From a virus, in the IMG/VR virus record IMGVR_UViG_3300029258_001854: a stretch of 53,083 bases of DNA; one strand, 5' to 3'. The translations under genes were made by a program, and so were the position numbers. Shown one piece after another: positions 4,186 to 33,911 of this stretch; within the stretch, counting starts at the first letter, position 1, and every line of letters begins with the position of its first letter. A model generated the notes under the pieces. It saw nothing but the letters and a program-made list of their open reading frames with translations, ran no database searches and was not told where the DNA came from.

Positions 4186-4189
4186 TTAA

Positions 4190-7096: not shown

Positions 7097-7105
7097 AACT
7101 AAAAT

Positions 7106-7558
7106 TCACTTTTGACTTATAGCTGAGTTGAAATAGCTTTCAAAATCAACATCTTCTATGTTCTTTTCAATAGAAGGTCTACTTTCTATTCTGGAGCTAC
7201 CTTCTTCAATGGATTGGGCATACTCATATGCTTCACCATACCAGTGTGTTATACCATAGCCAATTTGCAGGCCATTGACGCCGTTTGTTTTCCACGATAG
7301 AGATTTCTTCAACGCCTGAGATTCATTGGCATGGGCATTACCAGGAGCAGATCGCTTCACATGCCGTCCAAGGTAATGATTGAAATATCTTCTTCCGTGG
7401 GTTCTAGGTGTCTTATTGATATCATTGATTATCTTTCCCTTGAGCTTTCTACCCATACTATGGAGTGTCTTCTTGACAGCCTTCTCCATATGCTCATCTA
7501 TATTGATAATCTCTTGGTATTCAGAATCATCAACAACTTGATATATTACAGAACTCAT
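7106..7558 (-). CDS. Tail completion/neck protein (HK97 gp10-like, tentative)
   Basis: 150 aa. Position after the head-tail adaptor. The C-terminal YAQSIEEGSSRIESRP resembles the gp10-family YA..vE.G motif. Confidence 0.45.
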   Translation of the reverse strand: MSSVIYQVVDDSEYQEIINIDEHMEKAVKKTLHSMGRKLKGKIINDINKTPRTHGRRYFNHYLGRHVKRSAPGNAHANESQALKKSLSWKTNGVNGLQIGYGITHWYGEAYEYAQSIEEGSSRIESRPSIEKNIEDVDFESYFNSAISQK

Positions 7559-7929
7559 CTCTTGCCTGCATTCGTAGGGCCTCTGAAGCTACACTCAAGT
7601 TTTGTGTACTCACCTCTTTCAGAGACATTCATTACACGCTCTATCTTTAGCCTGCTACCATCAGTTTTCTGTATAAAATACTCAGTTGTAACTTCAGAGC
7701 GGTATCTAATTATCACCTCATCTGTGATCAGAGTCTCCCTTCCAGTCTGATCAAGTACATACCTGCCTCTAATGGGTCTTATAGCAGCCCATATGGCAGT
7801 ATTTTCAAACGCCTCATCAAAATCAACAGAACCAAAAACCGGAGGCACAATTGTGCGGTCTTGTAAGAGGACTCTTTCACTCAAGTCCCCAATTTCATAC
7901 CCGTCGTGTGTCAGTTTCTTTTTCTGCAT
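7555..7929 (-). CDS. Head-tail adaptor / head closure protein
   Basis: 124 aa with the pattern ...IWAAIRPIRGRYVLDQTGRETLITDEVIIRYRSEV..., typical of the SPP1 gp16-type head closure family. ATGA overlap with the next gene. Confidence 0.65.
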   Translation of the reverse strand: MQKKKLTHDGYEIGDLSERVLLQDRTIVPPVFGSVDFDEAFENTAIWAAIRPIRGRYVLDQTGRETLITDEVIIRYRSEVTTEYFIQKTDGSRLKIERVMNVSERGEYTKLECSFRGPTNAGKR

Positions 7930-7988
7930 AATAATAGTGGGACGCCCAGCGCACGGAACTGAGCGCCCCGAGCTATCAGGGGATAGCC

Positions 7989-8525
7989 CTATACATTGGG
8001 AATAGCCGATGCAAGATAGAATCGAGTTCTATCATAATCGTTTGAATCATCACCTCGATTCTCATATTCCCAACTGATATGCCGAAGCATATCTTGTTTG
8101 ACTACAGGAAGCATAGCATGTGCGGAAGTGTTAAACGCAATTCTGATTGGCTCCACTGTTTCCTTCACCTGTTTTGGCCATGACTGATCATATGCCAAAA
8201 CAACCTCAGATTGCAGTGTTTCCTTTTTGAGCTCATATGTGGAAGATGGGACAATAACAACGCTATTATCAGTACTCACATAATCTATTTGAAGAACCTG
8301 TGAAACAGGATTCCGATTCAAAACAGCATCAAAACAATCAGTAAAGCCATACCACTGGTTTGGCCTTAACTCACGTCTAGTATGCGCTTCTGCAAACAGC
8401 GTTACTTGACTTATGATATTGGTTATTACAGAGTCGTCTGCCGTAGTATCCACTTTCATGAAGAGTTTGGCTTCTGAAAGGGTGACAGGAGGAGGTCCGT
8501 AATTTACAATCTCATATCGTACCAT
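7989..8525 (-). CDS. Head-tail connector protein (gp6-like)
   Basis: The N-terminus (VTLSEAKLFMKVDTTADDSVITNIISQVTLFAEAHT) matches the gp6-like connector signature. Confidence 0.6.
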   Translation of the reverse strand: MVRYEIVNYGPPPVTLSEAKLFMKVDTTADDSVITNIISQVTLFAEAHTRRELRPNQWYGFTDCFDAVLNRNPVSQVLQIDYVSTDNSVVIVPSSTYELKKETLQSEVVLAYDQSWPKQVKETVEPIRIAFNTSAHAMLPVVKQDMLRHISWEYENRGDDSNDYDRTRFYLASAIPNV

Positions 8526-16978: not shown

Positions 16979-17017
16979 CATGGCGTCGGGGATTTACCCC
17001 GATGCTGGCCGGAGGAG

Positions 17018-17278
17018 CCGATAGAGGGGATTTCACCTCGGGCTAGACGCCCGCGTAGCCGAGTCAACGCGCGTCCGCGATTGTGCGGAGTAACGGACGC
17101 CTACATCCAAATACCCACCAGGGTGGGTAGGTCCACGGTCGGGCGCGAACGGCGATAGCAGCCCGCTCGCGCGGGGGTTTACACCCTCGCTCGCCATCGG
17201 TCCAATGACGTCGCCTAAGCTCGCGCCAAAAAAACAGGCTACGCTCGCACGCGATCGGGGTGAAATACCCTCTATCGG
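17018..17278 (+). ncRNA. GC-rich structured segment closed by a 19/20-bp long-range helix (structured leader, ncRNA or protein-bound DNA element)
   Basis: CCGATAGAGGGGATTTCACC (17018-17037) pairs with GGTGAAATACCCTCTATCGG (17259-17278). Internal hairpins include GCGTCCG..CGGACGC, ACCCAC-CAGG-GTGGGT and CCCGC-TCGC-GCGGG. Confidence 0.45.
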
Positions 17279-17323
17279 TTCCTCGACAATAATCGTAGGG
17301 ATATCCCTACCAAGGAGACAAAA

Positions 17324-17890
17324 ATGTCCGATATTCTCGACAACGCCAACGCCATCCTCATCCCGCTCATCAATGGAGGCACGACCGATGAGGATGAACT
17401 CATGACGGCCCTCGCCAACGCGGGTGGCTTTTCCATCAAGCGCATCCCGTCTCTGGTAACCCAGATTCTCCAGGATGAGGGGCTCCGCACTTCTCCCAAG
17501 GAACGCAACGAGGCCGTGGCTGAGCTCTTTGCCTCGGACACGCCGACCTTCGGAACCTGGGATGACGTCATTGCGGCTGCGGAGCGTGTCTGCGACCACG
17601 TGGCGAACACGACCACGGCGCAGGCGGTCACTTCCATCAAGAAGTGGGCCAAGGCCAACGGTGTGGAGTTGCCCTCCAAGCCCAAGGCGGCTGCGGGTGG
17701 ATCCCGGCGCAACGCATACGATGCCTTCGCAGAGTGGTTCCTGGCAAACCCCCAGGCCACGGACACGGATATCAATGACTATGCCCTGGGTGCCTTCCTC
17801 AAGGATGGGGAGCCCAATGAGAAGCAGGCTGTGAAGTACGCAGCCATCTTCATCCGCATGGCGGCCATGGCCCGCGCCTACCAGGCGTAG
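17324..17890 (+). CDS. Hypothetical early protein
   Basis: 188 aa with an AAGGAGACAAAAATG start context and GC-rich codon usage. A strong terminator follows. Confidence 0.7.
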   Translation: MSDILDNANAILIPLINGGTTDEDELMTALANAGGFSIKRIPSLVTQILQDEGLRTSPKERNEAVAELFASDTPTFGTWDDVIAAAERVCDHVANTTTAQAVTSIKKWAKANGVELPSKPKAAAGGSRRNAYDAFAEWFLANPQATDTDINDYALGAFLKDGEPNEKQAVKYAAIFIRMAAMARAYQA

Positions 17891-17898
17891 CCAAGGGT

Positions 17899-17939
17899 GA
17901 GGGGTGGGGTCCACACGGACCCTGCCCCTCTTGCTTTTT
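17899..17939 (+). terminator. Rho-independent terminator
   Basis: GAGGGGTGGGGTCC-ACAC-GGACCCTGCCCCTC stem (about 14 bp including G.U pairs), followed by TTGCTTTTT. Confidence 0.75.
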
Positions 17940-18031
17940 CTCACATCCAACCTGTGAAGGAGCCAACACCGCAATTTTGCCAAGCCACGCAGATTGCATG
18001 CCAAAATTCATGCCAACACGCTCCAGTGCGT

Positions 18032-18122
18032 GCTCGCTCGTGCGCTCGCTCGTGGGCGACAGCGACAACGACAGTGACAGTGCTAGTGCATATTCGCGCG
18101 ACAGTGACAGTACGCGAATATG
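18032..18122 (+). repeat. Short tandem repeats plus a 10-bp hairpin
   Basis: GCTCGCTCGTG twice (18032, 18044). GACARY hexamers (GACAGCGACAACGACAGTGACAGT). CATATTCGCG (18089-18098) pairs with CGCGAATATG (18113-18122). Confidence 0.6.
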
Positions 18123-18168
18123 GAGTTGCACTCTCGCCACTCTGAATGCCAATAAGGAATTTGAATCA

Positions 18169-18435
18169 ATGCCCAAGTGCCCTAGCTCTCTGACTCTCAC
18201 GACCTTGGATGATGTCGCCGAAACCTTCGATGGTGTGTCCGAGGAGGTGTACGACCAACTCTACTTGTACAGTGTCGCAGACAATCGCGACCCTCAAGAT
18301 GACTGGGACCCGGCAAGCTGGAAGGCTGGGAGCCCCAACCTCATCGAGAAGCGCTGGAACGAGTTGCCTCTCGTGCTCCAGTACACTCTCATCAAGATTG
18401 CTGCTAGGGAATATCCTGGAGACTTCTGGGACTAG
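18169..18435 (+). CDS. Hypothetical early protein
   Basis: The start was chosen at MPKCPSS because AAGGAATTTGAATCAATG carries the conserved initiation cassette. 88 aa, acidic. Confidence 0.6.
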   Translation: MPKCPSSLTLTTLDDVAETFDGVSEEVYDQLYLYSVADNRDPQDDWDPASWKAGSPNLIEKRWNELPLVLQYTLIKIAAREYPGDFWD

Positions 18436-18443
18436 TAGGGTGG

Positions 18444-18502
18444 CTCTATACCGACACGAGCCTTCACAGCTTCTGTCGGTATATTGACACACTACCTGTG
18501 TC
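18444..18502 (+). promoter_or_regulatory. Intercistronic two-hairpin element, copy A
   Basis: CTCTATA, then TATACCGACA...TGTCGGTATA (18447-18483), then TATATTGA, then GACAC..GTGTC (18486-18502). Confidence 0.7.
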
Positions 18503-18526
18503 CAACAACGTGAATAGGAATTTTGA

Positions 18527-18829
18527 ATGGCAATCCAGACGCAACGTGCACCCTTGTGGATCGAAGCATTGGTGCTCGGCAACGAGAAATTCCGTGCTCG
18601 GCAACTCGGTGAAGAGTTCGACGAGTTGGAATACTGCCAGAAGATGCATGGCTTCTATGATCAGGTCTGTGAGGATGGGTTCAGGGTCGCTGGGCGAGAC
18701 ACGCAGGCTCTTGAGGTGGAGCAGCTGGAGGAGCGCTGCGAATACTACGCCAAGCGCTACGAGGAACTCCTCAAGGAGCGTGACCCTGAACTCTGGGAGA
18801 AGACGTTCAAGCATCCGATGGGTGTGTAG
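18527..18829 (+). CDS. Hypothetical early protein
   Basis: 100 aa with an AGGAATTTTGAATG start cassette. Confidence 0.7.
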   Translation: MAIQTQRAPLWIEALVLGNEKFRARQLGEEFDELEYCQKMHGFYDQVCEDGFRVAGRDTQALEVEQLEERCEYYAKRYEELLKERDPELWEKTFKHPMGV

Positions 18830-18932
18830 CCAGTAGGGCACTAATTGCAGGATAAGTACCTGCCCTAGTGACCCTGGTTTCCCGATTCCGAAAAAGCCTA
18901 CATGCCACTAGTGCCAAAAATTGTTAGGGTCA

Positions 18933-18985
18933 TTTACTAACAATTTCTCAAAAAATTCTAGTGGTTTTACTAGCTTTTTACTAAC
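18933..18985 (+). repeat. Three TTTACTARC copies inside a roughly 460-bp ORF-poor region
   Basis: Copies at 18933, 18966 and 18977. CTAGTG/CACTAG motifs occur nearby (18862, 18907, 18958, 19177). Confidence 0.55.
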
Positions 18986-19252
18986 AGGTAAGTATCCGAA
19001 AAATAAGGGTTTTTTATATATCATATATAGGGACATCCTCTCTTACCCCCATGCTCCCTCTTGGGCAGCCTCATTTGCTCTGGTTGCCGTCTCTGGCGCC
19101 TGCGCGCTAACTGAGGTCGCTAACATAGGGGCAAATCGAAAAAACGTAATAAAATCGCGGACTTATCTGTTAGAAAGCACTAGCGAAAAGCTAGGGGCGG
19201 AAAATTGTTTTTCCAAAGGGCCTGAAAGCCCCTTTACTTCAGCGTAGAAATA

Positions 19253-19261
19253 CGCTATAAT
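19253..19261 (+). promoter_or_regulatory. CGCTATAAT promoter (-10), copy 1
   Basis: TTTACT, 17 nt, then TATAAT. A hairpin AAAGGGC..GCCCCTTT (about 19215-19238) precedes it. Confidence 0.6.
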
Positions 19262-19297
19262 AGCCCTACGGGCTGCAAAATTGACAAGGGAATGTAA

Positions 19298-19507
19298 ATG
19301 AAAATGAAGTATGCCTCGAAGCGCGACATGTTTGAGAACATCAAGTAGGTCGAGATTGGCCGATCTACTTACAGCGACGAGTGGGTCTGCCGTGCGTGGA
19401 TCTTGGTAGAGGGGAAGGTTGTCCGAGTGCCGGCTGCCGACTACTACACAGATGACCTCAAGGATGCGGAGGTGGCGAAAAGCGTGATGCTGGAGAAGGG
19501 AAAGTGA
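19298..19507 (+). pseudogene. ORF with the conserved start cassette, interrupted by an in-frame TAG at 19346-19348 (16 + 52 codons)
   Basis: Hand translation: MKMKYASKRDMFENIK * VEIGRSTYSDEWVCRAWILVEGKVVRVPAADYYTDDLKDAEVAKSVMLEKGK, ending at a TGA at 19505. Confidence 0.5.
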
Positions 19508-19572
19508 GACTAGGTGAAGCACTGTTCATCGCTGCCTTGATCTATTACCTCTACATTAGGAGTCAGATGTGA
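19504..19572 (+). CDS. Hydrophobic micro-ORF (22 aa, GTG start)
   Basis: MRLGEALFIAALIYYLYIRSQM. GTGA overlap with the upstream stop. Confidence 0.3.
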   Translation: MRLGEALFIAALIYYLYIRSQM

Positions 19573-19649
19573 AGGAAGTGGTTGCCATAATCTTCGCGTA
19601 CATGACCTTTGGCACTATCTGCCACGTCTACTTCAGCTTGACACTCTGA
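19569..19649 (+). CDS. Hydrophobic micro-ORF (26 aa, GTG start)
   Basis: MKEVVAIIFAYMTFGTICHVYFSLTL. AGGAG lies upstream and the junction reads ATGTGA. Confidence 0.3.
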   Translation: MKEVVAIIFAYMTFGTICHVYFSLTL

Positions 19650-19656
19650 GGCAAGA

Positions 19657-19707
19657 CTTTATATCCACAGGTTACACTGTGGGTATATTGAGTTGCTTCT
19701 AACTCAA
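19657..19707 (+). promoter_or_regulatory. Intercistronic two-hairpin element, copy B
   Basis: CTTTATA, then ATATCCACAG..CTGTGGGTAT, then TATATTGA, then TTGAGTT-GCTTCT-AACTCAA. Confidence 0.7.
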
Positions 19708-19726
19708 CTTGAATAAGGGAATTTGA

Positions 19727-20098
19727 ATGAGCATCTACAAAATTGCATACCGAGTGTGCCAGAACTACAATGAGTCTGGCTTCGCGTTCACGATTGATGA
19801 GCGGTCCAGTGATCTCGCAGGGGCGCAATTCTTCATCGAGTTTGATGCGAACCCTGACACATCCATCAAGATCTGGGAGGGTCATCGGACGAACACCTAC
19901 AACGTGAGGTGTCGCACTACTGATGACAACATCAGTGATCTCTGGAAGGATCTGGGGTTCCGCGTGGACATGGAGCCTGCGCCTCCTTCGATTGGTGTCG
20001 ATCAGCTGTATTCCTGCAGTCAGTCAACTCCCATCAAGGGTGGTGATATCGACGAACTGGTCACCTTCTGCCTGGATGTTGCCGACTATGTGGGTTGA
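19727..20098 (+). CDS. Hypothetical early protein
   Basis: 123 aa with an AAGGGAATTTGAATG start cassette. Confidence 0.7.
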   Translation: MSIYKIAYRVCQNYNESGFAFTIDERSSDLAGAQFFIEFDANPDTSIKIWEGHRTNTYNVRCRTTDDNISDLWKDLGFRVDMEPAPPSIGVDQLYSCSQSTPIKGGDIDELVTFCLDVADYVG

Positions 20099-20321
20099 TG
20101 AGATCTGCGAACTGAGGCGACGTGCTGACCAAGCGGAAAGCATCGGTGATCACCTGGAAGTTGCTGACATCAAGGCGACTCTGTGCCACTTGGACTACGA
20201 CTTGATGAAGTTGTACGACAAGCCACAGGTCGAGGTCGATGATCAGTGGAAGACGGTGGTCTTCTGGAACATGGTCTGCTCCTATCACTTCCACTACAAG
20301 GAGGCAACGGAATGTATCTGA
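20088..20321 (+). CDS. Hypothetical early protein
   Basis: In-frame ATG at 20088 (MWVDEICELRR...). The longer tracked start at 19923 would overlap the previous gene almost entirely. Confidence 0.55.
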   Translation: MWVDEICELRRRADQAESIGDHLEVADIKATLCHLDYDLMKLYDKPQVEVDDQWKTVVFWNMVCSYHFHYKEATECI

Positions 20322-20374
20322 TCTGGCTGATCGTGATGGCATTCAGTGCCTGGGTGTTCCACGATGCGTCCTGA
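20312..20374 (+). CDS. Hydrophobic micro-ORF (20 aa)
   Basis: MYLIWLIVMAFSAWVFHDAS, with AAGGAGGCAACGGAATG upstream. Confidence 0.3.
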   Translation: MYLIWLIVMAFSAWVFHDAS

Positions 20375-20531
20375 CTACAAGGATAAGTTCACAATGAAAG
20401 CAAGGTACGAAATCTTCAACCTGGAGACGGGTGAAGTGTTCGAGGGCGGATTCTTCACGCTGGAAGCAGCTGAGGACTACGCCTGGGAGCACTACCGTGA
20501 CAAGCCTCACGGTATTCGACAGGTGGGCTAA
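20346..20531 (+). CDS. Hypothetical early protein (start uncertain)
   Basis: Tracked 61-aa ORF. Alternative ATGs lie at 20364 and 20394. Confidence 0.5.
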   Translation: MPGCSTMRPDYKDKFTMKARYEIFNLETGEVFEGGFFTLEAAEDYAWEHYRDKPHGIRQVG

Positions 20532-20537
20532 GCACCA

Positions 20538-20584
20538 CTTTATATGGTCAGGCGACTGGCCATATATTGAGTTGCTTAACTCAA
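20538..20584 (+). promoter_or_regulatory. Intercistronic two-hairpin element, copy C
   Basis: CTTTATA, then TATATGGTCAG-GCGA-CTGGCCATATA, then TATATTGA, then TTGAGTT-GCTT-AACTCAA. Confidence 0.7.
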
Positions 20585-20597
20585 AAGGAGAATGTGA

Positions 20598-20822
20598 ATG
20601 AAGGCCAAAGGCAAGCAATGGCATGAGGGCACAAAGGTGGAATACTTGGGTGGCACCAAGATCCGCTTCACTTGCCCTCGTGGTCATCGCAAAACCCATG
20701 ATTACAGCAAGGGGCCTGTTCACAAGCGCATGGGAGAGTTTGGCTGTGAGTTCATGGCCAAAAGCTGGCAGCGCAATCGCGTTGTCTACCGATGCGTAAA
20801 GTGTGAAAAAAGGAGAATGTGA
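20598..20822 (+). CDS. Zinc-ribbon-like small basic protein
   Basis: 74 aa with FTCPRGH...YRCVKCEK. Start cassette AAGGAGAATGTGAATG. Confidence 0.65.
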   Translation: MKAKGKQWHEGTKVEYLGGTKIRFTCPRGHRKTHDYSKGPVHKRMGEFGCEFMAKSWQRNRVVYRCVKCEKRRM

Positions 20823-21068
20823 ATGAGAATGGAAGATCAGGATATCTTGCCCGGTGATATCATCGAAGTTGGTATCCACGAAGGCAAGACTGTGACTCGT
20901 GTCGAGTTGGACCCTAGTACCAACATGCTTTGGTACAAGGTGGGTGGTCGGTGGATCACTCGTGGCAACCTCATGCTTTCCTTCAGCCCGAGTGCTCAGG
21001 AGAGGGAGCAGGTGGACTTCGTGACTTCTGAGTGGTTCGAGAAGCGAGTCAGGAGGTTGAAGCTGTGA
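20823..21068 (+). CDS. Hypothetical early protein
   Basis: 81 aa. The identical AAGGAGAATGTGAATG cassette spans the upstream stop. Confidence 0.65.
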   Translation: MRMEDQDILPGDIIEVGIHEGKTVTRVELDPSTNMLWYKVGGRWITRGNLMLSFSPSAQEREQVDFVTSEWFEKRVRRLKL

Positions 21069-21247
21069 ATGATCCTGAATTGGTCGCTGGTCGGATGCTC
21101 TCCCAGAGGATGCACCGTGGCGTCAAGATCAAGGATGCCAAGCGGAGTGCCTACCTGATGGCTGAGGCTCATTGGCGAAATGCAGTGGAGAATCAGGAAA
21201 CTGGAAGCGTGATCTTCTGGAGAAAGGTGAAGGAGATTCTCAGATGA
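21065..21247 (+). CDS. Hypothetical early protein (GTG start)
   Basis: GTGA overlap with the upstream stop. 60 aa. Confidence 0.5.
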   Translation: MNDPELVAGRMLSQRMHRGVKIKDAKRSAYLMAEAHWRNAVENQETGSVIFWRKVKEILR

Positions 21248-21627
21248 GATGTTACATCGTGCCTTGGATTGGCGGAGGCAAGTCCTACTTCACAGAGGCT
21301 GAACTTCCCAACGTCATTGGCCCTGATAAGGCCAAGCTGCTGACAAGTGAGTTCCCGGCAATGTACTGTGTTGGGCGTAGTGAATGTGATTTCTACTACG
21401 TCTCAACTACATTCCTGGGGCATTCCTTCAATGGATGTGAACCGCCCACTCCGTTTGAGTCAATGGCCTTCATGAAGGAGAATGGCGAGATCAATTTCAT
21501 GGACATTGACCGTATGCAAGCAACCACTTGGGAGAACGCTGAAAACAATCACCGTGTGCTTGTCGAGAGGTACTTGACCAAGCTGCCGGATGATTGGCCG
21601 AAACTGGAATGGTGGAGGATGGACTGA
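21244..21627 (+). CDS. Hypothetical early protein
   Basis: ATGA overlap. 127 aa (MRCYIVPWIGGGKSYFTE...). Confidence 0.6.
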   Translation: MRCYIVPWIGGGKSYFTEAELPNVIGPDKAKLLTSEFPAMYCVGRSECDFYYVSTTFLGHSFNGCEPPTPFESMAFMKENGEINFMDIDRMQATTWENAENNHRVLVERYLTKLPDDWPKLEWWRMD

Positions 21628-21842
21628 TGCCGAGATGTGAAGACTTCCCTTGTTGTGGTCATCAAGATCCCGATGGGACTTCTTGGTGCCCTGATGAAGA
21701 TGGACGCTTTGACTGCGTCCTGTGCTACAGCAAGTTGCCGAAAGGTGCAACGAGCTCAGTGTGCCAAGGCTGCATGAACAGGCGGCGCTACTTGGACCCG
21801 TTTGAACGAGAGTTCGATGACAGAGAGGAGATGGACTATTGA
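21627..21842 (+). CDS. Cys-rich small protein (metal-binding candidate)
   Basis: TGATG junction. EDFPCCGH...WCPDEDGRFDCVLC...CQGC. Confidence 0.55.
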   Translation: MPRCEDFPCCGHQDPDGTSWCPDEDGRFDCVLCYSKLPKGATSSVCQGCMNRRRYLDPFEREFDDREEMDY

Positions 21843-22051
21843 AGCCCAAGATTTCCAAGAACAGCAAGCTCTGGGTGGACAAGGCTCCTGCTGAAAAGGC
21901 AGAGGTCATCAGAGAGGATGCAGCAATGCTCCGATCACAGGCACACGCCTACATGGTCAAAGCCAGGATGTGCCAGGATGATGCCAAAGCCTTGGAGACT
22001 CACGCCAAGAAATTGGAGAAAGGAGAGGCAACCGAACCCTATCAGTGGTGA
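21839..22051 (+). CDS. Hypothetical early protein (TTG start)
   Basis: TTGA overlap. 70 aa, helical and charged. Confidence 0.5.
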   Translation: MKPKISKNSKLWVDKAPAEKAEVIREDAAMLRSQAHAYMVKARMCQDDAKALETHAKKLEKGEATEPYQW

Positions 22052-22057
22052 GGTGCA

Positions 22058-22104
22058 CTTTATACACTCACTAACACTGAGTGTATATTGAGCAATTCAG
22101 CTCA
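22058..22104 (+). promoter_or_regulatory. Intercistronic two-hairpin element, copy D
   Basis: CTTTATA, then TATACACTCA..TGAGTGTATA, then TATATTGA, then TGAGC-AATTCA-GCTCA. Confidence 0.7.
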
Positions 22105-22116
22105 GATGGAGGAAGT

Positions 22117-22341
22117 ATGGGACTCACAATTGCAAAGATGGAACAGGAGTTTCTTGACATCACTGGCTATGAAAGCATCAATGAGTATCTCGACAGTGGA
22201 GAGGCTCTTGATAGCATTCAGCTGGGGATCTGCAAGGAATGTGGGTACAGCACCAATGTGGAACCGGATCAGGACAAGGGCTGGTGTGCACAATGTGATG
22301 CTGGTACTGTTCAGTCCATTCTCGTCATCTTGGGTATGTGA
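22117..22341 (+). CDS. Zinc-ribbon small protein
   Basis: GGAGGAAGTATG start. CKECGY...CAQCD. Confidence 0.6.
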   Translation: MGLTIAKMEQEFLDITGYESINEYLDSGEALDSIQLGICKECGYSTNVEPDQDKGWCAQCDAGTVQSILVILGM

Positions 22342-22784
22342 TGAACTGCTTTGTGACTAGCAAACAAAAGTTCTGGTCAGATTGGCACCCGAGTGGAGAG
22401 TTCTCAGTCATCTCCATTCAGTCTCCTCCCACACCTTGGGGTGAAGGCAGCTTGACTCCAATAGATGAAAGGTGGACTCAATCCATTGTCCTTGAGTTCC
22501 ATGACATTCTCCCTGATGATACAGTGGACAGGCCGTACACTTTGTTCAGCAAGGAGATGGCAAGTGAGCTCTTTGACTTTATCAGCAGTAGAGTCAAGAG
22601 GGGCAATGAACATAGCTTCCTAGTTCACTGTGATGCTGGAATGAGCAGATCTGTGGCAGTGGGTATGTTCATCAAGGAATACTACAACTACTTTCTGCAC
22701 CTCGAAGTTGCCCAGGATTGTAGCGCGTACAATGTGCACGTTTTTAATCTACTCCGAAGGCAATGGATGCAGAAAGAGGGGTAG
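22341..22784 (+). CDS. Cys-based phosphatase-like protein (CX5R motif)
   Basis: FLVHCDAGMSRSVAVGMF matches the HC-X5-R-S signature of protein-tyrosine/dual-specificity/polynucleotide phosphatases. Confidence 0.6.
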   Translation: MNCFVTSKQKFWSDWHPSGEFSVISIQSPPTPWGEGSLTPIDERWTQSIVLEFHDILPDDTVDRPYTLFSKEMASELFDFISSRVKRGNEHSFLVHCDAGMSRSVAVGMFIKEYYNYFLHLEVAQDCSAYNVHVFNLLRRQWMQKEG

Positions 22785-22801
22785 CGCCAACGTCTCATAT
22801 G

Positions 22802-22810
22802 CGCTATAAT
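22802..22810 (+). promoter_or_regulatory. CGCTATAAT promoter (-10), copy 2
   Basis: ATGCGCTATAATAGCG lies 30 nt upstream of the 22841 ATG. Confidence 0.6.
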
Positions 22811-22840
22811 AGCGTAACCCCCTTGAATTAAGGAGTTTGA

Positions 22841-23326
22841 ATGAACATCTTTTATCTTCACGCCGATCCTCACGTTGCTGCACAATATCAGTGTGACAAG
22901 CATGTTGTCAAGATGATTCTTGAGACTGCTCAAATGCTGAGTACAGCACATCGGGAGTTGTCAGACGAGTGTGATATTCCTGAGCATGCCTATAAGGCAA
23001 CTCATGTCAATCATCCTTGCAGTATCTGGGTGCGTGAAAGTGGATACAACTACGAATGGGCATATGAGCACTTCATTGCCCTTTGTAAAGAGTATTCATT
23101 CAGATATGACAAGACCCACCTGACTTACAAAAAGCTAGGTGCATCACTCTTGCTTCCACCGACTAAGATGAAGCTGGGTCATTTCACCGAGCCTCCTCAG
23201 TGCATGCCAGATCAGTACAAGCACTCTGATCCTGTTCAAGCATACCGTGCCTATTACAAGGGTGATAAGGCAGATATTGCTCAATGGTCAAAGGGGCGAC
23301 CTGCTCCCAGTTGGTGGAAAGCATGA
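22841..23326 (+). CDS. Conserved viral protein of unknown function
   Basis: 161 aa. The N-terminal MNIFYLHADPHVAAQYQCDKHVVKMILETAQML looks like a motif I recall from other phage and giant-virus proteins. I do not assign a function. Confidence 0.6.
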   Translation: MNIFYLHADPHVAAQYQCDKHVVKMILETAQMLSTAHRELSDECDIPEHAYKATHVNHPCSIWVRESGYNYEWAYEHFIALCKEYSFRYDKTHLTYKKLGASLLLPPTKMKLGHFTEPPQCMPDQYKHSDPVQAYRAYYKGDKADIAQWSKGRPAPSWWKA

Positions 23327-23514
23327 AGAGAAATGACAACTGTGTAATCTGCGGGCTTACCAGTGAGTTCATCAATGGTCTGAACTCAAAGCAAGAATGT
23401 GAAAACTGTGAAGCCTTGTTTGATATCGTAGATGAAGATGAGGTGGATCTTTCAATAGTGGAGGATGGGTATGACTGGATCAATAGATACCGAAGAAGTC
23501 GTCAAGAAGTTTGA
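23323..23514 (+). CDS. Zinc-ribbon small protein
   Basis: ATGA overlap. CVICG...CENC. Confidence 0.5.
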   Translation: MKRNDNCVICGLTSEFINGLNSKQECENCEALFDIVDEDEVDLSIVEDGYDWINRYRRSRQEV

Positions 23515-23821
23515 ACCTCTCGGCCATGCAATCCAAGGGTTTGTTGCAGGACTAGTGAACTTTCACTGGTACACCTGGAAGCGGGAGGTAAAGCAATACC
23601 CTCCTGCCACAGATAGACTGCCGCCTGTTTGGATTGATACAGAAGATGTAGTTCACTCTGTGCTAACCAAAAACTCTGATCTTTACTTTGCTGCCGAGCG
23701 AGTTGATGATGTTTACAGTGACTTCATGGACTATCACGTTGGCTATATGCTCGCAGGAATCTTCAAAGACATTGTGTGGATGGCTATTGTAGTATGCTTG
23801 ATTGCGAAGGGTTCGTGGTAG
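23465..23821 (+). CDS. Hypothetical protein with C-terminal hydrophobic segment
   Basis: 118 aa. IVWMAIVVCLIAKGSW at the C-terminus. Confidence 0.5.
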   Translation: MGMTGSIDTEEVVKKFEPLGHAIQGFVAGLVNFHWYTWKREVKQYPPATDRLPPVWIDTEDVVHSVLTKNSDLYFAAERVDDVYSDFMDYHVGYMLAGIFKDIVWMAIVVCLIAKGSW

Positions 23822-23961
23822 TCTGTGTCCAATGTAGAGAGCTCACAGACAAAACAGTTGATGGAATGTGCGATATCTGTGTTGAGGAGTATCTCGCCAG
23901 GGTTGCCGCAGACAATTGTAAAAGGTCTAATGCGAGACAAGCAACTCAGAGAAGAAGCTAA
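23776..23961 (+). CDS. Cys-rich small protein (start uncertain; GTG at 23815 possible)
   Basis: CVQC...CDIC. Confidence 0.4.
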   Translation: MDGYCSMLDCEGFVVVCVQCRELTDKTVDGMCDICVEEYLARVAADNCKRSNARQATQRRS

Positions 23962-23987
23962 AAAGGGTAGATTGCAAATTCGATCTA

Positions 23988-23996
23988 CGCTATAAT
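23988..23996 (+). promoter_or_regulatory. CGCTATAAT promoter (-10), copy 3
   Basis: TAGATT, 17 nt, then TATAAT. Confidence 0.55.
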
Positions 23997-24001
23997 TAGG
24001 G

Positions 24002-24058
24002 GGTTCCGTCGGCAAATACCCCCTCTAGTGCAGGTCGTACTAATTTGTCGGCGGAACC
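24002..24058 (+). promoter_or_regulatory. Structured 5' leader: 14-bp helix with two G.U pairs
   Basis: GGTTCCGTCGGCAA (24002-24015) pairs with TTGTCGGCGGAACC (24045-24058). The wobble pairs work only for the plus-strand RNA. Confidence 0.5.
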
Positions 24059-24077
24059 AACCTAAAGGTGAATGTGA

Positions 24078-24410
24078 ATGACGAGAATTATGCATCTGAT
24101 TCAAGAGATGGTTTGCGAATGTGATGAGATTGCTAGTGATGATCCTTGCATTCAATGCCAGCTGGCTGAAGAACTTGTTTCTGCTACTGATGATCTTAAA
24201 AAGGTAAGTGAACAGTGTGCAGCCCTCAAGAGGGAGAATGTGCAAGTTCACAAAACTTACAAACGCATCCAAGAAGTTCATGAGATGCATATTGATGCTC
24301 TTAACAGATATTGGCACCGTGGTCACAAAGACTGCCCTTGTGAAGATGGGAAGTTTCCTGCTAGGTGTGAATCAATCTGGCTCAAGACTAGGTTTTCTGA
24401 AACTTTATGA
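24078..24410 (+). CDS. Hypothetical Cys-rich/coiled-coil protein
   Basis: 110 aa with start cassette AAAGGTGAATGTGAATG. Confidence 0.65.
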   Translation: MTRIMHLIQEMVCECDEIASDDPCIQCQLAEELVSATDDLKKVSEQCAALKRENVQVHKTYKRIQEVHEMHIDALNRYWHRGHKDCPCEDGKFPARCESIWLKTRFSETL

Positions 24411-24595
24411 CTACACAAGCGCAAAAGTATCGTAACAACCTCATAAGTGCTATAGGTACTGTTATGAGGGAGTGTCCTGATTTGACTTTCCAGCAAATCA
24501 TCAAATCAGTCTTTGATGGGAAGAGCATTCCTGCTGATGACAAAGATGCATATGATCAAATCATTCGCTGGATGATTAATCATGGGGACTCTTAG
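24407..24595 (+). CDS. Hypothetical small protein
   Basis: 62 aa. ATGA overlap upstream. Its last 10 nt overlap the tRNA 5' end. Confidence 0.55.
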   Translation: MTTQAQKYRNNLISAIGTVMRECPDLTFQQIIKSVFDGKSIPADDKDAYDQIIRWMINHGDS

Positions 24596-24662
24596 CTCAG
24601 TTGGTTAGAGCGCCCGGCTCATAACCGGATGGTCCTGGGTTCAAGTCCCAGAGAGTCCACCA
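24586..24662 (+). tRNA. tRNA, anticodon CAT (elongator Met or Ile2-lysidine type), CCA encoded
   Basis: Hand-folded cloverleaf: acceptor GGACTCT/AGAGTCC, D GCTC/GAGC, anticodon loop CTCATAA, T CTGGG-TTCAAGT-CCCAG, A73, CCA. Confidence 0.85.
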
Positions 24663-24678
24663 CTTTACTTGGAGCAAA

Positions 24679-24873
24679 ATGAACTGCACAATATGTAATG
24701 AGTATGTGAATCCAAAACGAATTAAAATTGGCTATAAAACTTGTCTAAAATGCGGTCAGCATTTTGCTGAAAAAGAATCAGCAAGAAGGAAGAAATGCAT
24801 TGCTCCTGCATTCAACAAAGGTCCATACATGTATGTGACTGGTAAAAGTATGGCAAAGGATGTAGGCAAGTAA
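24679..24873 (+). CDS. TraR/DksA-like C4 zinc-finger protein (tentative)
   Basis: CTICNEYVNPKRIKIGYKTCLKCGQ. GGAG lies upstream. Confidence 0.5.
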   Translation: MNCTICNEYVNPKRIKIGYKTCLKCGQHFAEKESARRKKCIAPAFNKGPYMYVTGKSMAKDVGK

Positions 24874-24916
24874 AGCTCGCCCCTGCTGGCATACCGGGGT
24901 CTAAACTTGTATGCCA

Positions 24917-25018
24917 CTATATGGATACCCATTAGAACAAATACCGTGGATGCGGAGTGTTAATTGGGACAGGCGGTTTGTCCCCACTCATGCAACCGTC
25001 TAATGGGTATCCACATAG
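24917..25018 (+). ncRNA. Candidate stable RNA: 102-nt rod-like imperfect hairpin
   Basis: 24917-24936 pairs 19/20 with 24999-25018. Inner helices: TGC/GCA, GGAGTG/CACTC, GGGACA-7 nt-TGTCCC. Confidence 0.5.
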
Positions 25019-25161
25019 TATTTTATTGTTGAAGCATTATCAGGTGTATGGGCGTTGCAGGACGCTGCGACAGAGCAAGCGTGGCTCAGAGAAAATGGCC
25101 AACTCAAAACACGAGGGCTGCTTCTTAACTTTGGTGCGGTAGGTAACACCAGAGACTATGT

Positions 25162-25236
25162 GCCGATTTAGCTCAGAGGTAGAGCAGCTGATTTGTAATC
25201 AGCAGGTCGTCAGTTCGAATCTGACAGTCGGCTCCA
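25162..25236 (+). tRNA. tRNA-Thr (anticodon TGT), CCA encoded
   Basis: Acceptor GCCGATT/AGTCGGC, anticodon stem GCTGA/TCAGC, loop TTTGTAA, T GTCAG-TTCGAAT-CTGAC. Confidence 0.9.
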
Positions 25237-25256
25237 TTTAACAACAGGGGTGCAAT

Positions 25257-25364
25257 ATGCCTGGATCTGGAAAAGCAAAGCAGAAGAAGATGGCAAAGAA
25301 GAAGCGGCACAAGGAGTGCCTTGCCATCAAGCGCAAGAAGAAGGCTGAAAAGAAGGGGAAGTAG
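25257..25364 (+). CDS. Lys-rich micro-ORF (35 aa)
   Basis: MPGSGKAKQKKMAKKKRHKECLAIKRKKKAEKKGK. AGGGG lies upstream. The 3' end overlaps the next tRNA by 10 nt. Confidence 0.35.
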   Translation: MPGSGKAKQKKMAKKKRHKECLAIKRKKKAEKKGK

Positions 25365-25430
25365 CCCAACGGCAGAGGCAGGAGACTTAAAATCTCTACA
25401 GTGTGGGTTCGAATCCCACCTTCCCTACCA
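25355..25430 (+). tRNA. tRNA with anticodon TAA (Leu by anticodon) but a class I (5-nt) variable region, CCA encoded
   Basis: Exactly 76 nt with standard numbering. Acceptor GGGGAAG/CTTCCCT (G1.U72), loop CTTAAAA, variable ACAGT, T GTGGG-TTCGAAT-CCCAC, A73. Confidence 0.75.
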
Positions 25431-25448
25431 TTTTAATGAGGAATTTGA

Positions 25449-25592
25449 ATGATGCCTAGAATTGGTGATGATCTTACACTTGAGCCGCCTCTTGATCCTC
25501 CTGATGATGATGAAGTGTGCGATGATGAGTATGACTACTCAGATTATGAGTCAAAGGAAGACAATGCTGCGTACTGGGGTGACTGGGATTGA
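25449..25592 (+). CDS. Acidic micro-protein (47 aa)
   Basis: GAGGAATTTGAATG cassette. MMPRIGDDLTLEPPLDPPDDDEVCDDEYDYSDYESKEDNAAYWGDWD. Confidence 0.5.
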   Translation: MMPRIGDDLTLEPPLDPPDDDEVCDDEYDYSDYESKEDNAAYWGDWD

Positions 25593-25996
25593 CCTCTAAC
25601 ACTCTTTACATTCTCAGGGGTGTTCCTGGGTCTGGTAAGACCACTCTTGCCAACTTGATGACTATTGGATTCAATTCTGTGGACATTCATGCTGTGGCCT
25701 ATGCTGCTGATGATTACTTCACAGATGAGAATGGCAATTACAGGTTTGACAAGAAGCGTCTTGGCGAAGCTCATGATTGGTGCCAGGACAGAGTGCTCGC
25801 TGATATGAGAGCAAGGATTCCTGTCATCATTGTGCACAACACTTTCGTCCAGATTTGGGAGATGAAGCCGTATATGGATATGGCAGATGAGAGTGGTTAC
25901 ATTGTCAATGAGATTGTCTGTAAGGGGCGATGGATGAATCAGCATGGAGTCCCTGATGAAGTCATTATCAGTATGCAGAATCGTTGGGAAGATTGA
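25589..25996 (+). CDS. P-loop kinase-like ATPase (AAA_33/polynucleotide-kinase-like)
   Basis: TTG start with TTGA overlap. Walker A GVPGSGKTT. Short 135-aa kinase-sized fold. Confidence 0.65.
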   Translation: MTSNTLYILRGVPGSGKTTLANLMTIGFNSVDIHAVAYAADDYFTDENGNYRFDKKRLGEAHDWCQDRVLADMRARIPVIIVHNTFVQIWEMKPYMDMADESGYIVNEIVCKGRWMNQHGVPDEVIISMQNRWED

Positions 25997-26003
25997 TAAA
26001 TAA

Positions 26004-26080
26004 GCACCCGTAGCTCAGTTGGATAGAGCAGCTGCCTTCTAAGCAGCGGGTCGCAGGTTCGAGTCCTGCCGGGTGCGCCA
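26004..26080 (+). tRNA. tRNA-Arg (anticodon TCT), CCA encoded
   Basis: Acceptor GCACCCG/CGGGTGC, anticodon stem GCTGC/GCAGC, loop CTTCTAA, T GCAGG-TTCGAGT-CCTGC. Confidence 0.92.
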
Positions 26081-26125
26081 TCACCCAAACTTTAGGTTTT
26101 ATAACCCAAAAGAAAGGTGGAAAGC

Positions 26126-26356
26126 ATGAAGGTTTTCGAGGAAATCGGAAGGTTCTGGTCTGCTAAATCTTTGCTAGTTGGAAAGATTGGAGAACATGAA
26201 CACTGGAAAGTTTATAGTGAACTAGAGACTGGGAACATTATTGAGTATTACGAAGACGGGGAGTGCAAGAAGGAGTTGGTACTACCGTGGGAGCCAGAGC
26301 TATTGATTGCCATTGGCGAAGCGATCTGCGCTCTAGGGAAAACAAATAATGAATAA
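26126..26356 (+). CDS. Hypothetical small protein
   Basis: ATG at 26126 after AAAGGTGG. 76 aa. Confidence 0.55.
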   Translation: MKVFEEIGRFWSAKSLLVGKIGEHEHWKVYSELETGNIIEYYEDGECKKELVLPWEPELLIAIGEAICALGKTNNE

Positions 26357-26801
26357 GTCTAAAGAAGCAGAGGACCGCATTGAAACGCTCCAATCTGAAG
26401 TTGAAGAAAGAAAGCGCTTGTGGGTTGAAGCGATGGACGAGGCACAGACGCAGAAAGATCGCGCCGCTGCCGCCGAGGCCCGCGCCGCCGAGTTGGAGGA
26501 CGAGCTGCGCCGTCGCCAGGAGATCATCGACGACGCGCGCATTCGGATGGACAAGCTTGACCTCGCAGACCGGCTGGCGGAGGCGGCGAAACCCGCGATC
26601 AAGCAACTCTTTAGCTACGATCACGCACCCGGCGTCCGAGTGGCCGTCCCTCTCAAGGAGGCCCTCGCCGCCTACCACTCGGCGAAAGCTGTCGTGAACG
26701 ATCCGCACCCGGACACGGAGCGGCTGGACTGGCTCCTCCGTGTCTACCGTCTCGACCGTGAAGCAATCGACGCAGCGCGGGAGGGGAGTCGTGAGGATTA
26801 A
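26349..26801 (+). CDS. Hypothetical coiled-coil protein, strongly GC-rich gene
   Basis: 150 aa rich in A/R/E. Its composition contrasts sharply with flanking DNA. It lies between tRNA-Arg and tRNA-Ile. Confidence 0.6.
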   Translation: MNKSKEAEDRIETLQSEVEERKRLWVEAMDEAQTQKDRAAAAEARAAELEDELRRRQEIIDDARIRMDKLDLADRLAEAAKPAIKQLFSYDHAPGVRVAVPLKEALAAYHSAKAVVNDPHPDTERLDWLLRVYRLDREAIDAAREGSRED

Positions 26802-26819
26802 ACTGTTCTACTCGCCAGA

Positions 26820-26896
26820 GGGCCTGTAGCTCAACTGGTTAGAGCACACGTCTTATAAGCGTGCGGTTGTGGGTTCGAGTCCCACCAGGCCAACCA
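26820..26896 (+). tRNA. tRNA-Ile (anticodon TAT), CCA encoded, G1-A72 mismatch
   Basis: Acceptor GGGCCTG/CAGGCCA, D GCTC/GAGC, loop CTTATAA, T GTGGG-TTCGAGT-CCCAC. Confidence 0.85.
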
Positions 26897-26898
26897 TT

Positions 26899-27063
26899 AT
26901 GGGTAAAATAGTAATCTTCATAAGCATGGATGACCCACAAGAGAAGTGGGATGCTCTTTATGAGTATATCCGCAAATATGATATTGATGAAAGGGAGGTA
27001 GTTGATGATCTAGAATATGAAAATACAAACAAATTGAAGTTTTACTCAGAACCTGAAGATTGA
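26899..27063 (+). CDS. Hypothetical small acidic protein
   Basis: The ATG at 26899 lies just 3' of the tRNA. The longer tracked start would lie inside the tRNA. Confidence 0.5.
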   Translation: MGKIVIFISMDDPQEKWDALYEYIRKYDIDEREVVDDLEYENTNKLKFYSEPED

Positions 27064-27074
27064 AGGTAATGTAA

Positions 27075-27179
27075 ATGGAAGATGGTTACTGTGTAGTTTG
27101 TGGTGATTTTGATGAACTTGATTCGGAAAATTGCTGCCCAAACTGTGACCTAGATGAATTGGAAGAAGATGGCAATTAA
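27075..27179 (+). CDS. Zinc-ribbon micro-protein (34 aa)
   Basis: GAAGGTAATGTAAATG cassette. MEDGYCVVCGDFDELDSENCCPNCDLDELEEDGN. Confidence 0.45.
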   Translation: MEDGYCVVCGDFDELDSENCCPNCDLDELEEDGN

Positions 27180-27903
27180 AATCACTACAGTTGATGAGTC
27201 CATCAAAAGTCAAGGGCTAAAACTTCTTGTTTATGGCCTTTTGGGCACTGGTAAGACAGTTCTTGGAGCAACTCCTGCTAGTCAGGATAGCCCTGTGCTG
27301 TTTATCAATGCTGAAGGTGGTCTTTTGTCACTGAAAGATATGCCTTCTGAGAAGAAAAAGCATATTTCTGTGGCAACTGTGCGTGGTTTAGGTGATGTGG
27401 ATGAGATTTACAACACCCTTACCACCACAAAGGACTACAAATGGGTGGTACTTGACTCAATTTCTGAGATTGCTGAGGTTGTTCTAGCAGAACAGAAGAA
27501 GCAAGAAAGAGATGGGCGTGCCGCATACGGAAATCTGGCTGATATTATGAATGTCACGCTCAGATCTTTCCGTGATATTGAAGGCTACAATGTATACATG
27601 TCTGCAAAGATGACTCGTTATACAGACGAGATCACCAATCGCACCATGTATTGGCCTTTGATGCCTGGTAGGCAGCTTACCAATGGTATTGGGTACATTT
27701 TTGATGAGGTTTTTGCTCTAAGAGTGGAAACTGATCAGGAAGGTAACCAAACAAGATGGCTTCAGACGAGCAGAGATGTTCAATATGAAGCAAAAGACAG
27801 GTCTGGTAGACTAGATATGTTTGAAGAGCCTGACCTTAACCACATTGAAAATAAAATCAATGGAATTTCAGAGGAGAATGATAATGGCACGGCTTCCGCT
27901 TAA
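27169..27903 (+). CDS. RecA-fold AAA ATPase (AAA_24 / Sak4-like recombination protein)
   Basis: Walker A LLVYGLLGTGKT, Walker B WVVLDSISE. Adjacent to an SSB-like gene. Confidence 0.75.
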   Translation: MAIKITTVDESIKSQGLKLLVYGLLGTGKTVLGATPASQDSPVLFINAEGGLLSLKDMPSEKKKHISVATVRGLGDVDEIYNTLTTTKDYKWVVLDSISEIAEVVLAEQKKQERDGRAAYGNLADIMNVTLRSFRDIEGYNVYMSAKMTRYTDEITNRTMYWPLMPGRQLTNGIGYIFDEVFALRVETDQEGNQTRWLQTSRDVQYEAKDRSGRLDMFEEPDLNHIENKINGISEENDNGTASA

Positions 27904-33806: not shown

Positions 33807-33902
33807 AGGGGTGTTAGCTGACACTTTTCGAGCATAGTTCCCTAGCCTAGTCTAGCGGCCAGGGGCGTAGGTATTTCACTACTTTCGCCAATCTATGTGA
33901 TG

Positions 33903-33911
33903 CGCTATAAT
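33903..33911 (+). promoter_or_regulatory. CGCTATAAT promoter (-10), copy 4
   Basis: GATGCGCTATAATAGG lies 24 nt upstream of the GTG at 33935. Confidence 0.6.

Follow-up and report, generated by a model that had tools for sequence, protein, structure and literature searches.

What is the role of four short elements that recur, in a common layout but with copy-specific stems, between the early genes of an uncultured tailed phage? We addressed this question in what is called here the window, the whole stretch of DNA analysed (53,083 nucleotides (nt), IMG/VR virus record IMGVR_UViG_3300029258_001854), which is essentially an entire contig of ~53 kb (ENA ERZ27256770 k141_2144266). A sequence-only reading of the window had described the elements, A to D, as two adjacent hairpins with TTTATA and TATATT boxes and an invariant TATATTGA, and had named RNase III-type processing, termination/antitermination, a promoter-embedded hairpin and the binding of a phage regulator as candidate roles. 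All four copies hold up in position, stems, flanks, TATATTGA and second hairpin, and the wobble pairs T19664.G19683 and T20548.G20559 are present. On the best explanation of our results, each element acts in cis as a structure of the polycistronic early mRNA and not as a DNA signal. By analogy with phage T7, we consider it reasonably probable that the elements are RNase III-type processing/stability signals, with the downstream RNA then refolding into a 5'-terminal hairpin.

Structure of the Intercistronic Elements

Positions are numbered from the upper stem-loop, HP1, with minus signs upstream and plus signs downstream of it; HP2 denotes the alternative hairpin, and R1 is a covariance model built from the element family. 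The parts of the four elements are as follows.

18435..18495, plus strand: element A, long interrupted hairpin (R1 52.0 bits)
18435-18441 and 18489-18495, plus strand: element A, lower 5' arm (GTAGGGT, overlapping the stop codon TAG 18433-18435) and lower 3' arm (ACACTAC)
18444, 18447-18483 and 18486, plus strand: element A, C-3, HP1 upper stem-loop and G+3
18484..18504, plus strand: element A, alternative hairpin HP2 (core GACAC/GTGTC, overlapping the lower 3' arm; next ATG 18527)
19648..19699, plus strand: element B, long interrupted hairpin (R1 69.0 bits)
19648-19654 and 19693-19699, plus strand: element B, lower 5' arm (GAGGCAA, overlapping the stop codon TGA 19647-19649 of an open reading frame of 26 amino acids (aa)) and lower 3' arm (TTGCTTC)
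19657, 19660-19687 and 19690, plus strand: element B, C-3, HP1 and G+3
19688..19707, plus strand: element B, alternative hairpin HP2 (TTGAGTTG/TAACTCAA, 8 base pairs (bp); next ATG 19727)
20529..20578, plus strand: element C, long interrupted hairpin (R1 69.2 bits)
20529-20535 and 20572-20578, plus strand: element C, lower 5' arm (TAAGCAC, including the stop codon TAA 20529-20531) and lower 3' arm (TTGCTTA)
20538, 20541-20566 and 20569, plus strand: element C, C-3, HP1 and G+3
20567..20584, plus strand: element C, alternative hairpin HP2 (TTGAGTT/AACTCAA; next ATG 20598)
22049..22099, plus strand: element D, long interrupted hairpin (R1 62.6 bits)
22049-22055 and 22093-22099, plus strand: element D, lower 5' arm (TGAGGTG, including the stop codon TGA 22049-22051) and lower 3' arm (CAATTCA)
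22058, 22061-22087 and 22090, plus strand: element D, C-3, HP1 and G+3
22088..22105, plus strand: element D, alternative hairpin HP2 (TTGAGC/GCTCAG; next ATG 22117)

Each copy of the element is located in a gap from a stop codon to the following ribosome-binding site. When copies were anchored on both ends of HP1 and the flanking positions were tested for pairing, the diagonal -k/+k stood out: -3 pairs with +3 in 18 of 18 copies, and -7, -9, -10, -11 and -12 pair with their plus partners in 16-18 of the 18. The lower stem joins -12 to -6 with +6 to +12, is 7 bp long and takes in the upstream stop codon. Each element is built of this stem, an internal loop in which one C-G pair stands isolated, and HP1 of 10-12 bp with an A-U-rich base, in all 7 + 1 + 10-12 bp, or ~19 bp over ~23 helical layers. 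Both hairpins of the two-hairpin layout described earlier are real, but that layout misses the 7-bp lower stem, which is present in every copy.

The full model comprises 18 pairs (the lower stem, the isolated C-G and the first 10 pairs of HP1) and was evaluated in 24 distinct copies from the window and five related lineages, all between early genes and all in gene orientation. Pairing is kept in the relatives: 93.3% of the cells are paired. Shuffling the columns lowers this value to 69.5 ± 1.5% (none of 500 shuffles attains it) and sliding the partners out of register to 28-46%, and both sides have changed at 13 of the 18 pairs. The lower stem is itself copy-specific, with 62 of 70 pairs formed in 10 non-orthologous copies as against 45.4 ± 3.0 when the flanks are permuted (0 of 20,000 permutations reach 62). 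Energy minimisation yields the long hairpin as the best fold for 15 out of 18 copies.

It should be noted that hairpins of at least 10 bp are common in this DNA by chance (66 on the plus strand of the window, 29-50 in Markov-simulated windows), and a single hairpin is therefore not evidence; the signal is the repeated layout. Similarly, TATATTGA occurs 11 times in the window (2.87 ± 1.73 expected), with a hairpin on its 5' side and a ribosome-binding site on its 3' side only in the four reported occurrences. Regarded earlier as invariant, it varies in the relatives.

Primary sequence is kept in the internal loop, whose geometry is fixed and symmetric, 5 nt against 5 nt (5'-N-R-C-Y-Y / U-Y-G-A-G-3'). 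Its 5' side carries a purine (-4), C-3 and two pyrimidines (-2, -1); its 3' side reads U+1, a pyrimidine (+2), G+3 and A+4, with G+5 as the usual last base. Among the first 18 copies G+3 and A+4 are invariant and C-3 is found in 17. The isolated pair C-3/G+3 is formed in 23 of the 24 copies, with one U.G, and a MAFFT alignment of both flanks contains zero gaps in all 24. Within HP1, pair 1 is either U-A or C-G; pairs 2-4 are always (24/24 copies) A-U or U-A, the third and fourth flipping between the two, and pairs 2 and 10 are invariant A-U in 24/24. The length of HP1 stays at 10-12 bp in the copies measured, though the loops span 3-21 nt.

Such conservation might also be expected of an operator, in which a phage repressor, an endoribonuclease, a chaperone or another RNA-binding protein or nuclease reads the RCYY/UYGAG loop between helices of fixed length. 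The internal loop is the only conserved primary sequence and shows no indels, and pairs 2 and 10 of HP1 are held constant while their neighbours covary freely, which suggests specific contacts; most early genes of the phage, moreover, are without known function. We nevertheless regard an operator as unlikely, though a serious rival: no candidate RNA-binding protein or nuclease was identified, the architecture is already accounted for by a ubiquitous host enzyme, and the ribosome-binding site lies outside the structure with equal predicted accessibility in all states, which makes classical translational repression improbable.

Selection on Pairing in the Sense-Strand RNA

In the paired columns we counted 19 G.U cells and 3 A.C cells, and this excess points to sense-strand RNA, as does the far lower score of the antisense strand with R1, in agreement with the action in plus-strand RNA that had been proposed from the wobble pairs. 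Comparisons of orthologous copies give the same picture for selection on structure. Thirteen changed pairs stay paired, including changes from G-C to U-A, U.G to A-U and A-U to G-C, and one position is U.G, U-A and C-G in three lineages; another eight changed pairs in the orthologous groups are unpaired in one of their states, chiefly at -8, -6 and -12, where pairing is weak. Substitutions per site are threefold rarer in paired columns (0.047) than in unpaired ones (0.152). Selection on structure rather than sequence, as first suggested by the four window copies, is thus borne out by substitutions that mostly keep pairing, and the element is very probably a selected RNA structure.

Copy G_a is a chimera in which flanks from one orthologous group enclose an HP1 identical to that of the neighbouring copy, and only the orthologue comparisons are free of the caveat that whole hairpins may have been swapped. 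In the relative L247, two copies 227 nt apart (7228-7289 and 7455-7516) have an identical 26-nt HP1, one of them with the flanks and HP2 of a different orthologous group (L204 7536-7599); by its sequence, this shared HP1 with foreign flanks indicates a probable gene conversion or chimera between copies.

Action at the level of DNA, as a cruciform, an attC-like single-stranded recombination site or a binding site for a replication/recombination protein, could likewise leave stems variable and flanks conserved, and would suit elements that stand at cassette borders and include a chimera of two other copies. The tolerance of G.T on the sense strand only and the gene orientation of 24/24 copies make this highly improbable. 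No site-specific recombinase or integrase was found among the scanned proteins or the precomputed Pfam matches near the elements, a search that did not cover every open reading frame of the window, and a dimeric DNA-binding protein could not accommodate HP2 half-sites whose spacing varies by 4-7 nt. HP2 as a DNA operator was rejected on the same variation in spacing.

The Alternative Hairpin HP2

HP2 occupies +1 to +8, with a core that starts from the invariant G+3, and shares three bases with the lower stem (+6 to +12), which makes the two structures mutually exclusive. Covariation is seen in the inner pairs of HP2 (GAGUU/AACUC, GAGUC/GACUC, GAGC/GCUC, GACAC/GUGUC). The copy-specific stems noticed earlier are therefore real, but their specificity is weak, with 68 pairs as against 61.2 ± 1.9 when the arms are permuted (49 of 20,000 permutations reach 68). 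The fold with HP1 and HP2 lies within 0.4-6.5 kcal/mol of the long-hairpin fold. In 13 of the 18 copies, the four window copies among them, an RNA beginning at G+3 folds so that no 5' nucleotide is left unpaired.

The ribosome-binding site is predicted to be unpaired with a probability of 0.67 in the intact RNA, 0.68 with the left flank blocked and 0.70 in the RNA from G+3, and a translational-coupling switch was rejected on this equality of the three states. The same values bear on a passive module that would never be cut, acting as an exonuclease block or ribosome-binding-site insulator or as a two-state switch in which the terminating ribosome melts the lower stem and HP2 forms. The stop codon, which lies within or overlaps the lower 5' arm in 4/4 window copies, and the mutual exclusion of a lower stem and an HP2 that are near in energy would fit such a module. 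We consider it quite unlikely, as the predicted accessibility does not change across the states and the conserved loop, the fixed 5-nt spacing on both sides and the 10-12 bp of the upper stem are left unexplained.

A long hairpin followed by a short one was also seen in early gaps of unrelated sequence (L247 10572-10655, 11082-11161 and 12593-12692; L204 3984-4044 and 1987-2070). In at least L247 10572-10655 and 11082-11161 the basal 3' arm of the long hairpin, judged by eye, overlaps the 5' arm of the short one. These gaps hint at what may be a general design rather than one sequence family.

Extent of the Family

Relatives were recovered by protein searches (with the terminase and one early protein) and one metagenome pattern scan. 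Five related lineages carry the element (L204/L205/L206, L213, L247/L248, L270 and L295/L299), and R1 finds the copies there and in the window at 48-70 bits, while the antisense strand of the same copies scores at most 23.6 bits. R1 gave no further match in the rest of the window, in T7 positions 400-8000 or in four related but more distant genome lineages, and over 928 kb of distant relatives the best match was 17.3 bits (E = 0.72).

Four genome lineages with a terminase 63-68% identical (loci L207-L212 and L214-L216) are without elements, which indicates that the family is restricted to one clade. The IMG/VR terminase relatives (at most 53% identical) carry no elements either. Two IMG/VR pattern scans gave chance matches only, a 25-nt match in L231/L232 lying inside a coding region, and the metagenome pattern scan gave 3 real copies among the 120 matches listed, all on Tara scaffolds. 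An Rfam scan of 17000-27500 (E ≤ 1) returned five transfer RNAs (tRNAs) and two sub-threshold antisense matches on two of them. The elements are an RNA family absent from Rfam, new in sequence, of a known functional kind and clade-restricted, whose one unusual feature is the overlap of an alternative hairpin with the lower stem.

Promoters and Terminators

The boxes in the elements raise the question of transcription signals. A promoter was found outside them.

19233..19261, plus strand: sigma70-type early promoter, outside the elements (TTTACT-17-TATAAT, -10 context CGCTATAAT)

This promoter most likely drives the operon with elements B, C and D, between which our scan detected no terminator-like site. 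The promoter motif of the phage and its relatives, (T)AGCGyCAAC-N17-CGCTATAAT, is well conserved, with versions in the relatives L204, L207, L211 and L247. In the window CGCTATAAT recurs at ~22780-22810 (near 22803), ~23965-23996 (near 23989) and ~33880-33911 (near 33904), and two of the four window promoters with CGCTATAAT have a (T)AGCGCCAAC-like -35 region.

A sigma70 promoter within the element was rejected, since the boxes are 18-35 nt apart and the phage has a conserved promoter motif separate from them; the doubt already voiced about a plain -35/-10 promoter was well placed, the -10 hexamer being lost in relatives. The TATA boxes, taken at first for conserved sequence, prove to be covarying base pairs there (UAUA/UAUA, UAAU/AUUA, CAUA/UAUG). 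Reading TATATT as a -10 box also fails on the variants TATATC, ATTATT and TATGTT and on the lack of any single register with A2 and T6 in every copy, which leaves a promoter-embedded hairpin without support. Promoter-like matches in the region are at chance level (13 against 12.0 ± 3.4). N4-like hairpin promoters for a phage RNA polymerase were rejected because no RNA polymerase was found among the phage proteins scanned, and transcription accordingly presumably depends on the host enzyme.

An intrinsic terminator was rejected as well: the stem base is A-U-rich and is followed by UUGAG with no U-tract, and the scan flags 0 of the 4 elements. The canonical terminator at 17899-17930 looks quite unlike them. 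The proposed terminator/antiterminator role accordingly finds no support in the absence of a U-tract after the hairpin, and for the other roles suggested besides RNase III processing we found none either, the loops not being conserved.

The leader that runs for 460 nt from the early promoter to element B contains tiny open reading frames (19299-19649), of which 19504-19572 (22 aa) and 19569-19649 (26 aa) are hydrophobic; the stop codon of the latter is inside the lower stem of element B. The 5' untranslated region that follows the promoter near 23989 (window 23996-24062) holds a long near-perfect hairpin, GGTTCCGTCGGCAAAT...ATTTGTCGGCGGAACC, a further candidate double-stranded RNA element, and a similar promoter and long-hairpin module is found at L211 3436-3585.

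Comparison with RNase III Signals and Proposed Mechanism

RNase III of Escherichia coli cuts five signals in the ~7,000-nt early precursor of T7 (PMC3867540). Internal loops confine the cut to one strand and leave a protective 3' hairpin, at least ~11 bp are needed between cut and loop, and A-U/U-A pairs are favoured next to the cut (PMC1540722).

Three features expected of RNase III signals are found in the elements. The first is about two turns (~20 bp) of helix with interruptions allowed, here ~23 layers with the pairing described above; the second is the length of helix between the loop and the cut, which is only predicted here, HP1 having 10-12 bp in the copies measured; the third is a place between the cistrons of a shared transcript, elements B, C and D being downstream of the promoter 19233-19261. 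RNase III-type processing, one of the roles first suggested, is the best-supported reading, although it is plausible only through the lower stem, internal loop and HP1 together, and not through HP1 adjoining HP2.

In the folds that we made of the T7 sites R0.3, R0.5, R1 and R1.1 there is a stop-containing lower stem, an internal loop and an upper stem of 9-10 bp, with an isolated pair in the internal loop of R0.3 and R1.1; the upper stem of R1.3 has 13 bp. The two systems therefore agree in the stop-codon lower stem, the internal loop and an upper stem of ~10 bp, as well as in their location in gaps of 60-80 nt between the cistrons of an early operon that the host polymerase transcribes. They would also agree in a cut of one strand that leaves a protective 3' hairpin, expected for T7 (PMC1540722, PMC3867540) and predicted here. 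The elements differ from the T7 sites in that their loop is symmetric, 5 nt against 5 nt, with a different sequence (RCYY/UYGAG), in the base of the upper stem, which is of the UAUA type instead of AAGG/CCUU, and in the lower 3' arm, which doubles as the 5' arm of HP2 and has nothing comparable in the T7 folds.

Given HP1 of 10-12 bp, the A-U or U-A pairs at positions 2-4 and the invariant loop geometry, we infer an RNase III cut in the 3' half of the internal loop. By analogy with T7, the host RNase III would bind the long hairpin and cut at about U+2/G+3. This would leave the upstream message with a protective hairpin at its 3' end. The same cut would remove the lower stem, and the downstream RNA, starting with G+3, would refold with HP2 flush at its 5' end. 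There HP2 may protect the downstream message against 5'-end-dependent decay and leave the ribosome-binding site open. Overall, the early transcript would be divided into separately stable mono- or oligocistronic mRNAs.

A hairpin flush at the 5' end protects against 5'-end-dependent attack by RNase E, and 5'-terminal stabilising stem-loops of this kind, the ompA type of bacterial mRNAs, were reportedly described by Emory, Bouvet and Belasco in 1992. HP2 would resemble them in having no unpaired 5' nucleotides after the predicted cut, but would arise by processing and refolding and not at the transcription start.

Several points weigh against RNase III processing. The lower stem is short, with a mismatch at -8/+8 in 9 of 24 copies and at -6/+6 in 9 of 24, and with copy G_a being a chimera, covariation between copies within a genome may partly reflect whole-hairpin swaps and not stepwise compensation. 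The likeness to the T7 sites is architectural only, without sequence homology, as the lack of an R1 match in T7 shows. The first HP1 pair is C-G in 5 of 24 copies, which suppresses catalysis by the E. coli enzyme; the base-pair preferences next to the cut, in turn, are those of that enzyme and may not be those of the host's. The T7 cut that serves for comparison, between UAU and GAU, is the one reportedly given by Dunn and Studier (1983), the T7 records being without RNase III sites. Finally, the two folds are only 0.4-6.5 kcal/mol apart, and either may form in the cell.

Antitermination RNAs of early phage transcripts offer another comparison. HK022 put sites are reported to occur once per early operon, just downstream of the promoter, and act on terminators. 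Together with lambda nut they resemble the elements as structured RNA in early phage transcripts, with two adjacent stem-loops. The elements differ in their 3-5 copies per operon, each between cistrons, in the absence of downstream terminators from our scan and in their unconserved loops.

Element Borders and Possible Cassette Exchange

Comparison of element C with L213 (window 20309-20807 against L213 3651-3734) shows a 94.5%-identical island that runs from the stop codon at 20529 to the start codon at 20601. L213 lacks any counterpart of the DNA that flanks the island (20309-20528 and 20602-20807), and the breakpoints fall on the stop and start codons. The 74-aa gene 20598-20822 is missing from L213 and is bracketed by a 17-nt direct repeat, AAAGGAGAATGTGAATG, which contains the ribosome-binding site and start codon (20584-20600 and 20809-20825). 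From these sequences, the gene looks like a cassette that was gained or lost by recombination between ribosome-binding-site repeats. The elements, which run exactly from stop codon to start codon, may thus behave as portable junctions at which gene cassettes are gained, lost or exchanged.

This behaviour recalls the PeSL (promoter-early stem-loop) cassettes of T4-like phages, which have a near-consensus sigma70 promoter with N17 spacing, carry the stem-loop most often between or overlapping the boxes, and mediate cassette shuffling; in a reporter assay of PeSL211/210 the stem-loop acted as a terminator/attenuator (PMC2839356, PMC4122927). Both are repeated intergenic stop-to-start modules with a stem-loop among small early genes without known function, and both are tied to indels and chimeric copies (PMC2839356, PMC4122927). 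The defining promoter with ~17-bp spacing fails here, and the real promoters of the phage are elsewhere.

The elements could still be PeSL-like composites, with TTTATA and TATATT as -35 and -10 boxes and an attenuating stem-loop between them. The linear order is common to both (stop codon, boxes with stem-loop, Shine-Dalgarno sequence, ATG; PMC2839356, PMC4122927), copies C and D score 9/12 as sigma70-like, and indels border element C on both sides. We judge this very unlikely, because the box spacing and hexamer variants given above are not those of a promoter and the boxes covary as base pairs, because promoter-like matches are at chance level beside a separate conserved motif and no U-tract follows the hairpin, and because a transcript starting ~7 nt after TATATT would lack the 5' arm of HP2.

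RNase III-type processing and the behaviour of the borders can be joined in a more detailed model, which we offer tentatively. Each element would be a two-state punctuation module of ~70 nt, in which the long hairpin is cut by the host RNase III or by a phage factor that reads RCYY/UYGAG and the new 5' end snaps into HP2. Such a module would stabilise both mRNAs and also serve as a portable stop-to-start junction for cassette exchange.

Phage and Genome Setting

The phage encodes a large terminase, portal, major head protein, tail sheath, primase, helicase, DnaE-type DNA polymerase and ligase. Structural genes fill the minus strand up to ~17 kb, and small early genes followed by replication genes fill the plus strand from 17.3 kb to 42 kb; five tRNA genes (Met, Thr, Leu, Arg and Ile) are scattered among early and middle genes at 24586-26896. 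Megablast against 50,697 phage records gave no nucleotide match, and the nearest cultured relatives reach a protein identity of only 40% (terminase) and 50% (polymerase). Tara Oceans samples are the source of several related contigs (ERZ2783009, ERZ2783065 and scaffolds of the TARA_R1100007xx series), which indicates that the phage is marine.

Two regions near element A differ from their surroundings. An island of 60.8% G+C in a genome of 43% G+C (window 17001-18200) holds a 188-aa gene without a family match, whose homologues form one cluster only, a strong terminator with a T-run at 17899-17930, and GCTCGCTCGTG-type repeats at ~18000-18120. The ~420 nt of non-coding DNA between the gene of element A and the early promoter (18830-19250) contain repeated TTACTAAC, stretches with CTAGTG and several hairpins, and could be a regulatory region or an origin.

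Early-gene starts have a common context of GGAR, 4-6 nt and TGAATG, in which the TGA stop abuts the ATG (window 18510-18529, 19710-19729, 20584-20600, 20809-20825, 22823-22843 and 24060-24080).

Implications

The elements would add to the known structured RNAs a family new to Rfam, from a clade of uncultured marine tailed phages. They also hold a lesson for annotation, namely that a '-10-like' box can be a covarying helix.

If the RNase III reading is true, mRNA punctuation in the style of T7 extends to a phage that is unrelated to T7 and has a contractile tail and a DnaE-type polymerase. If the refolding is true as well, one short module stabilises both cleavage products, which would be useful for insulating genes in synthetic operons. 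The borders of the elements, being exactly the breakpoints of indels, provide a handle on how small early genes without known function are shuffled among phages.

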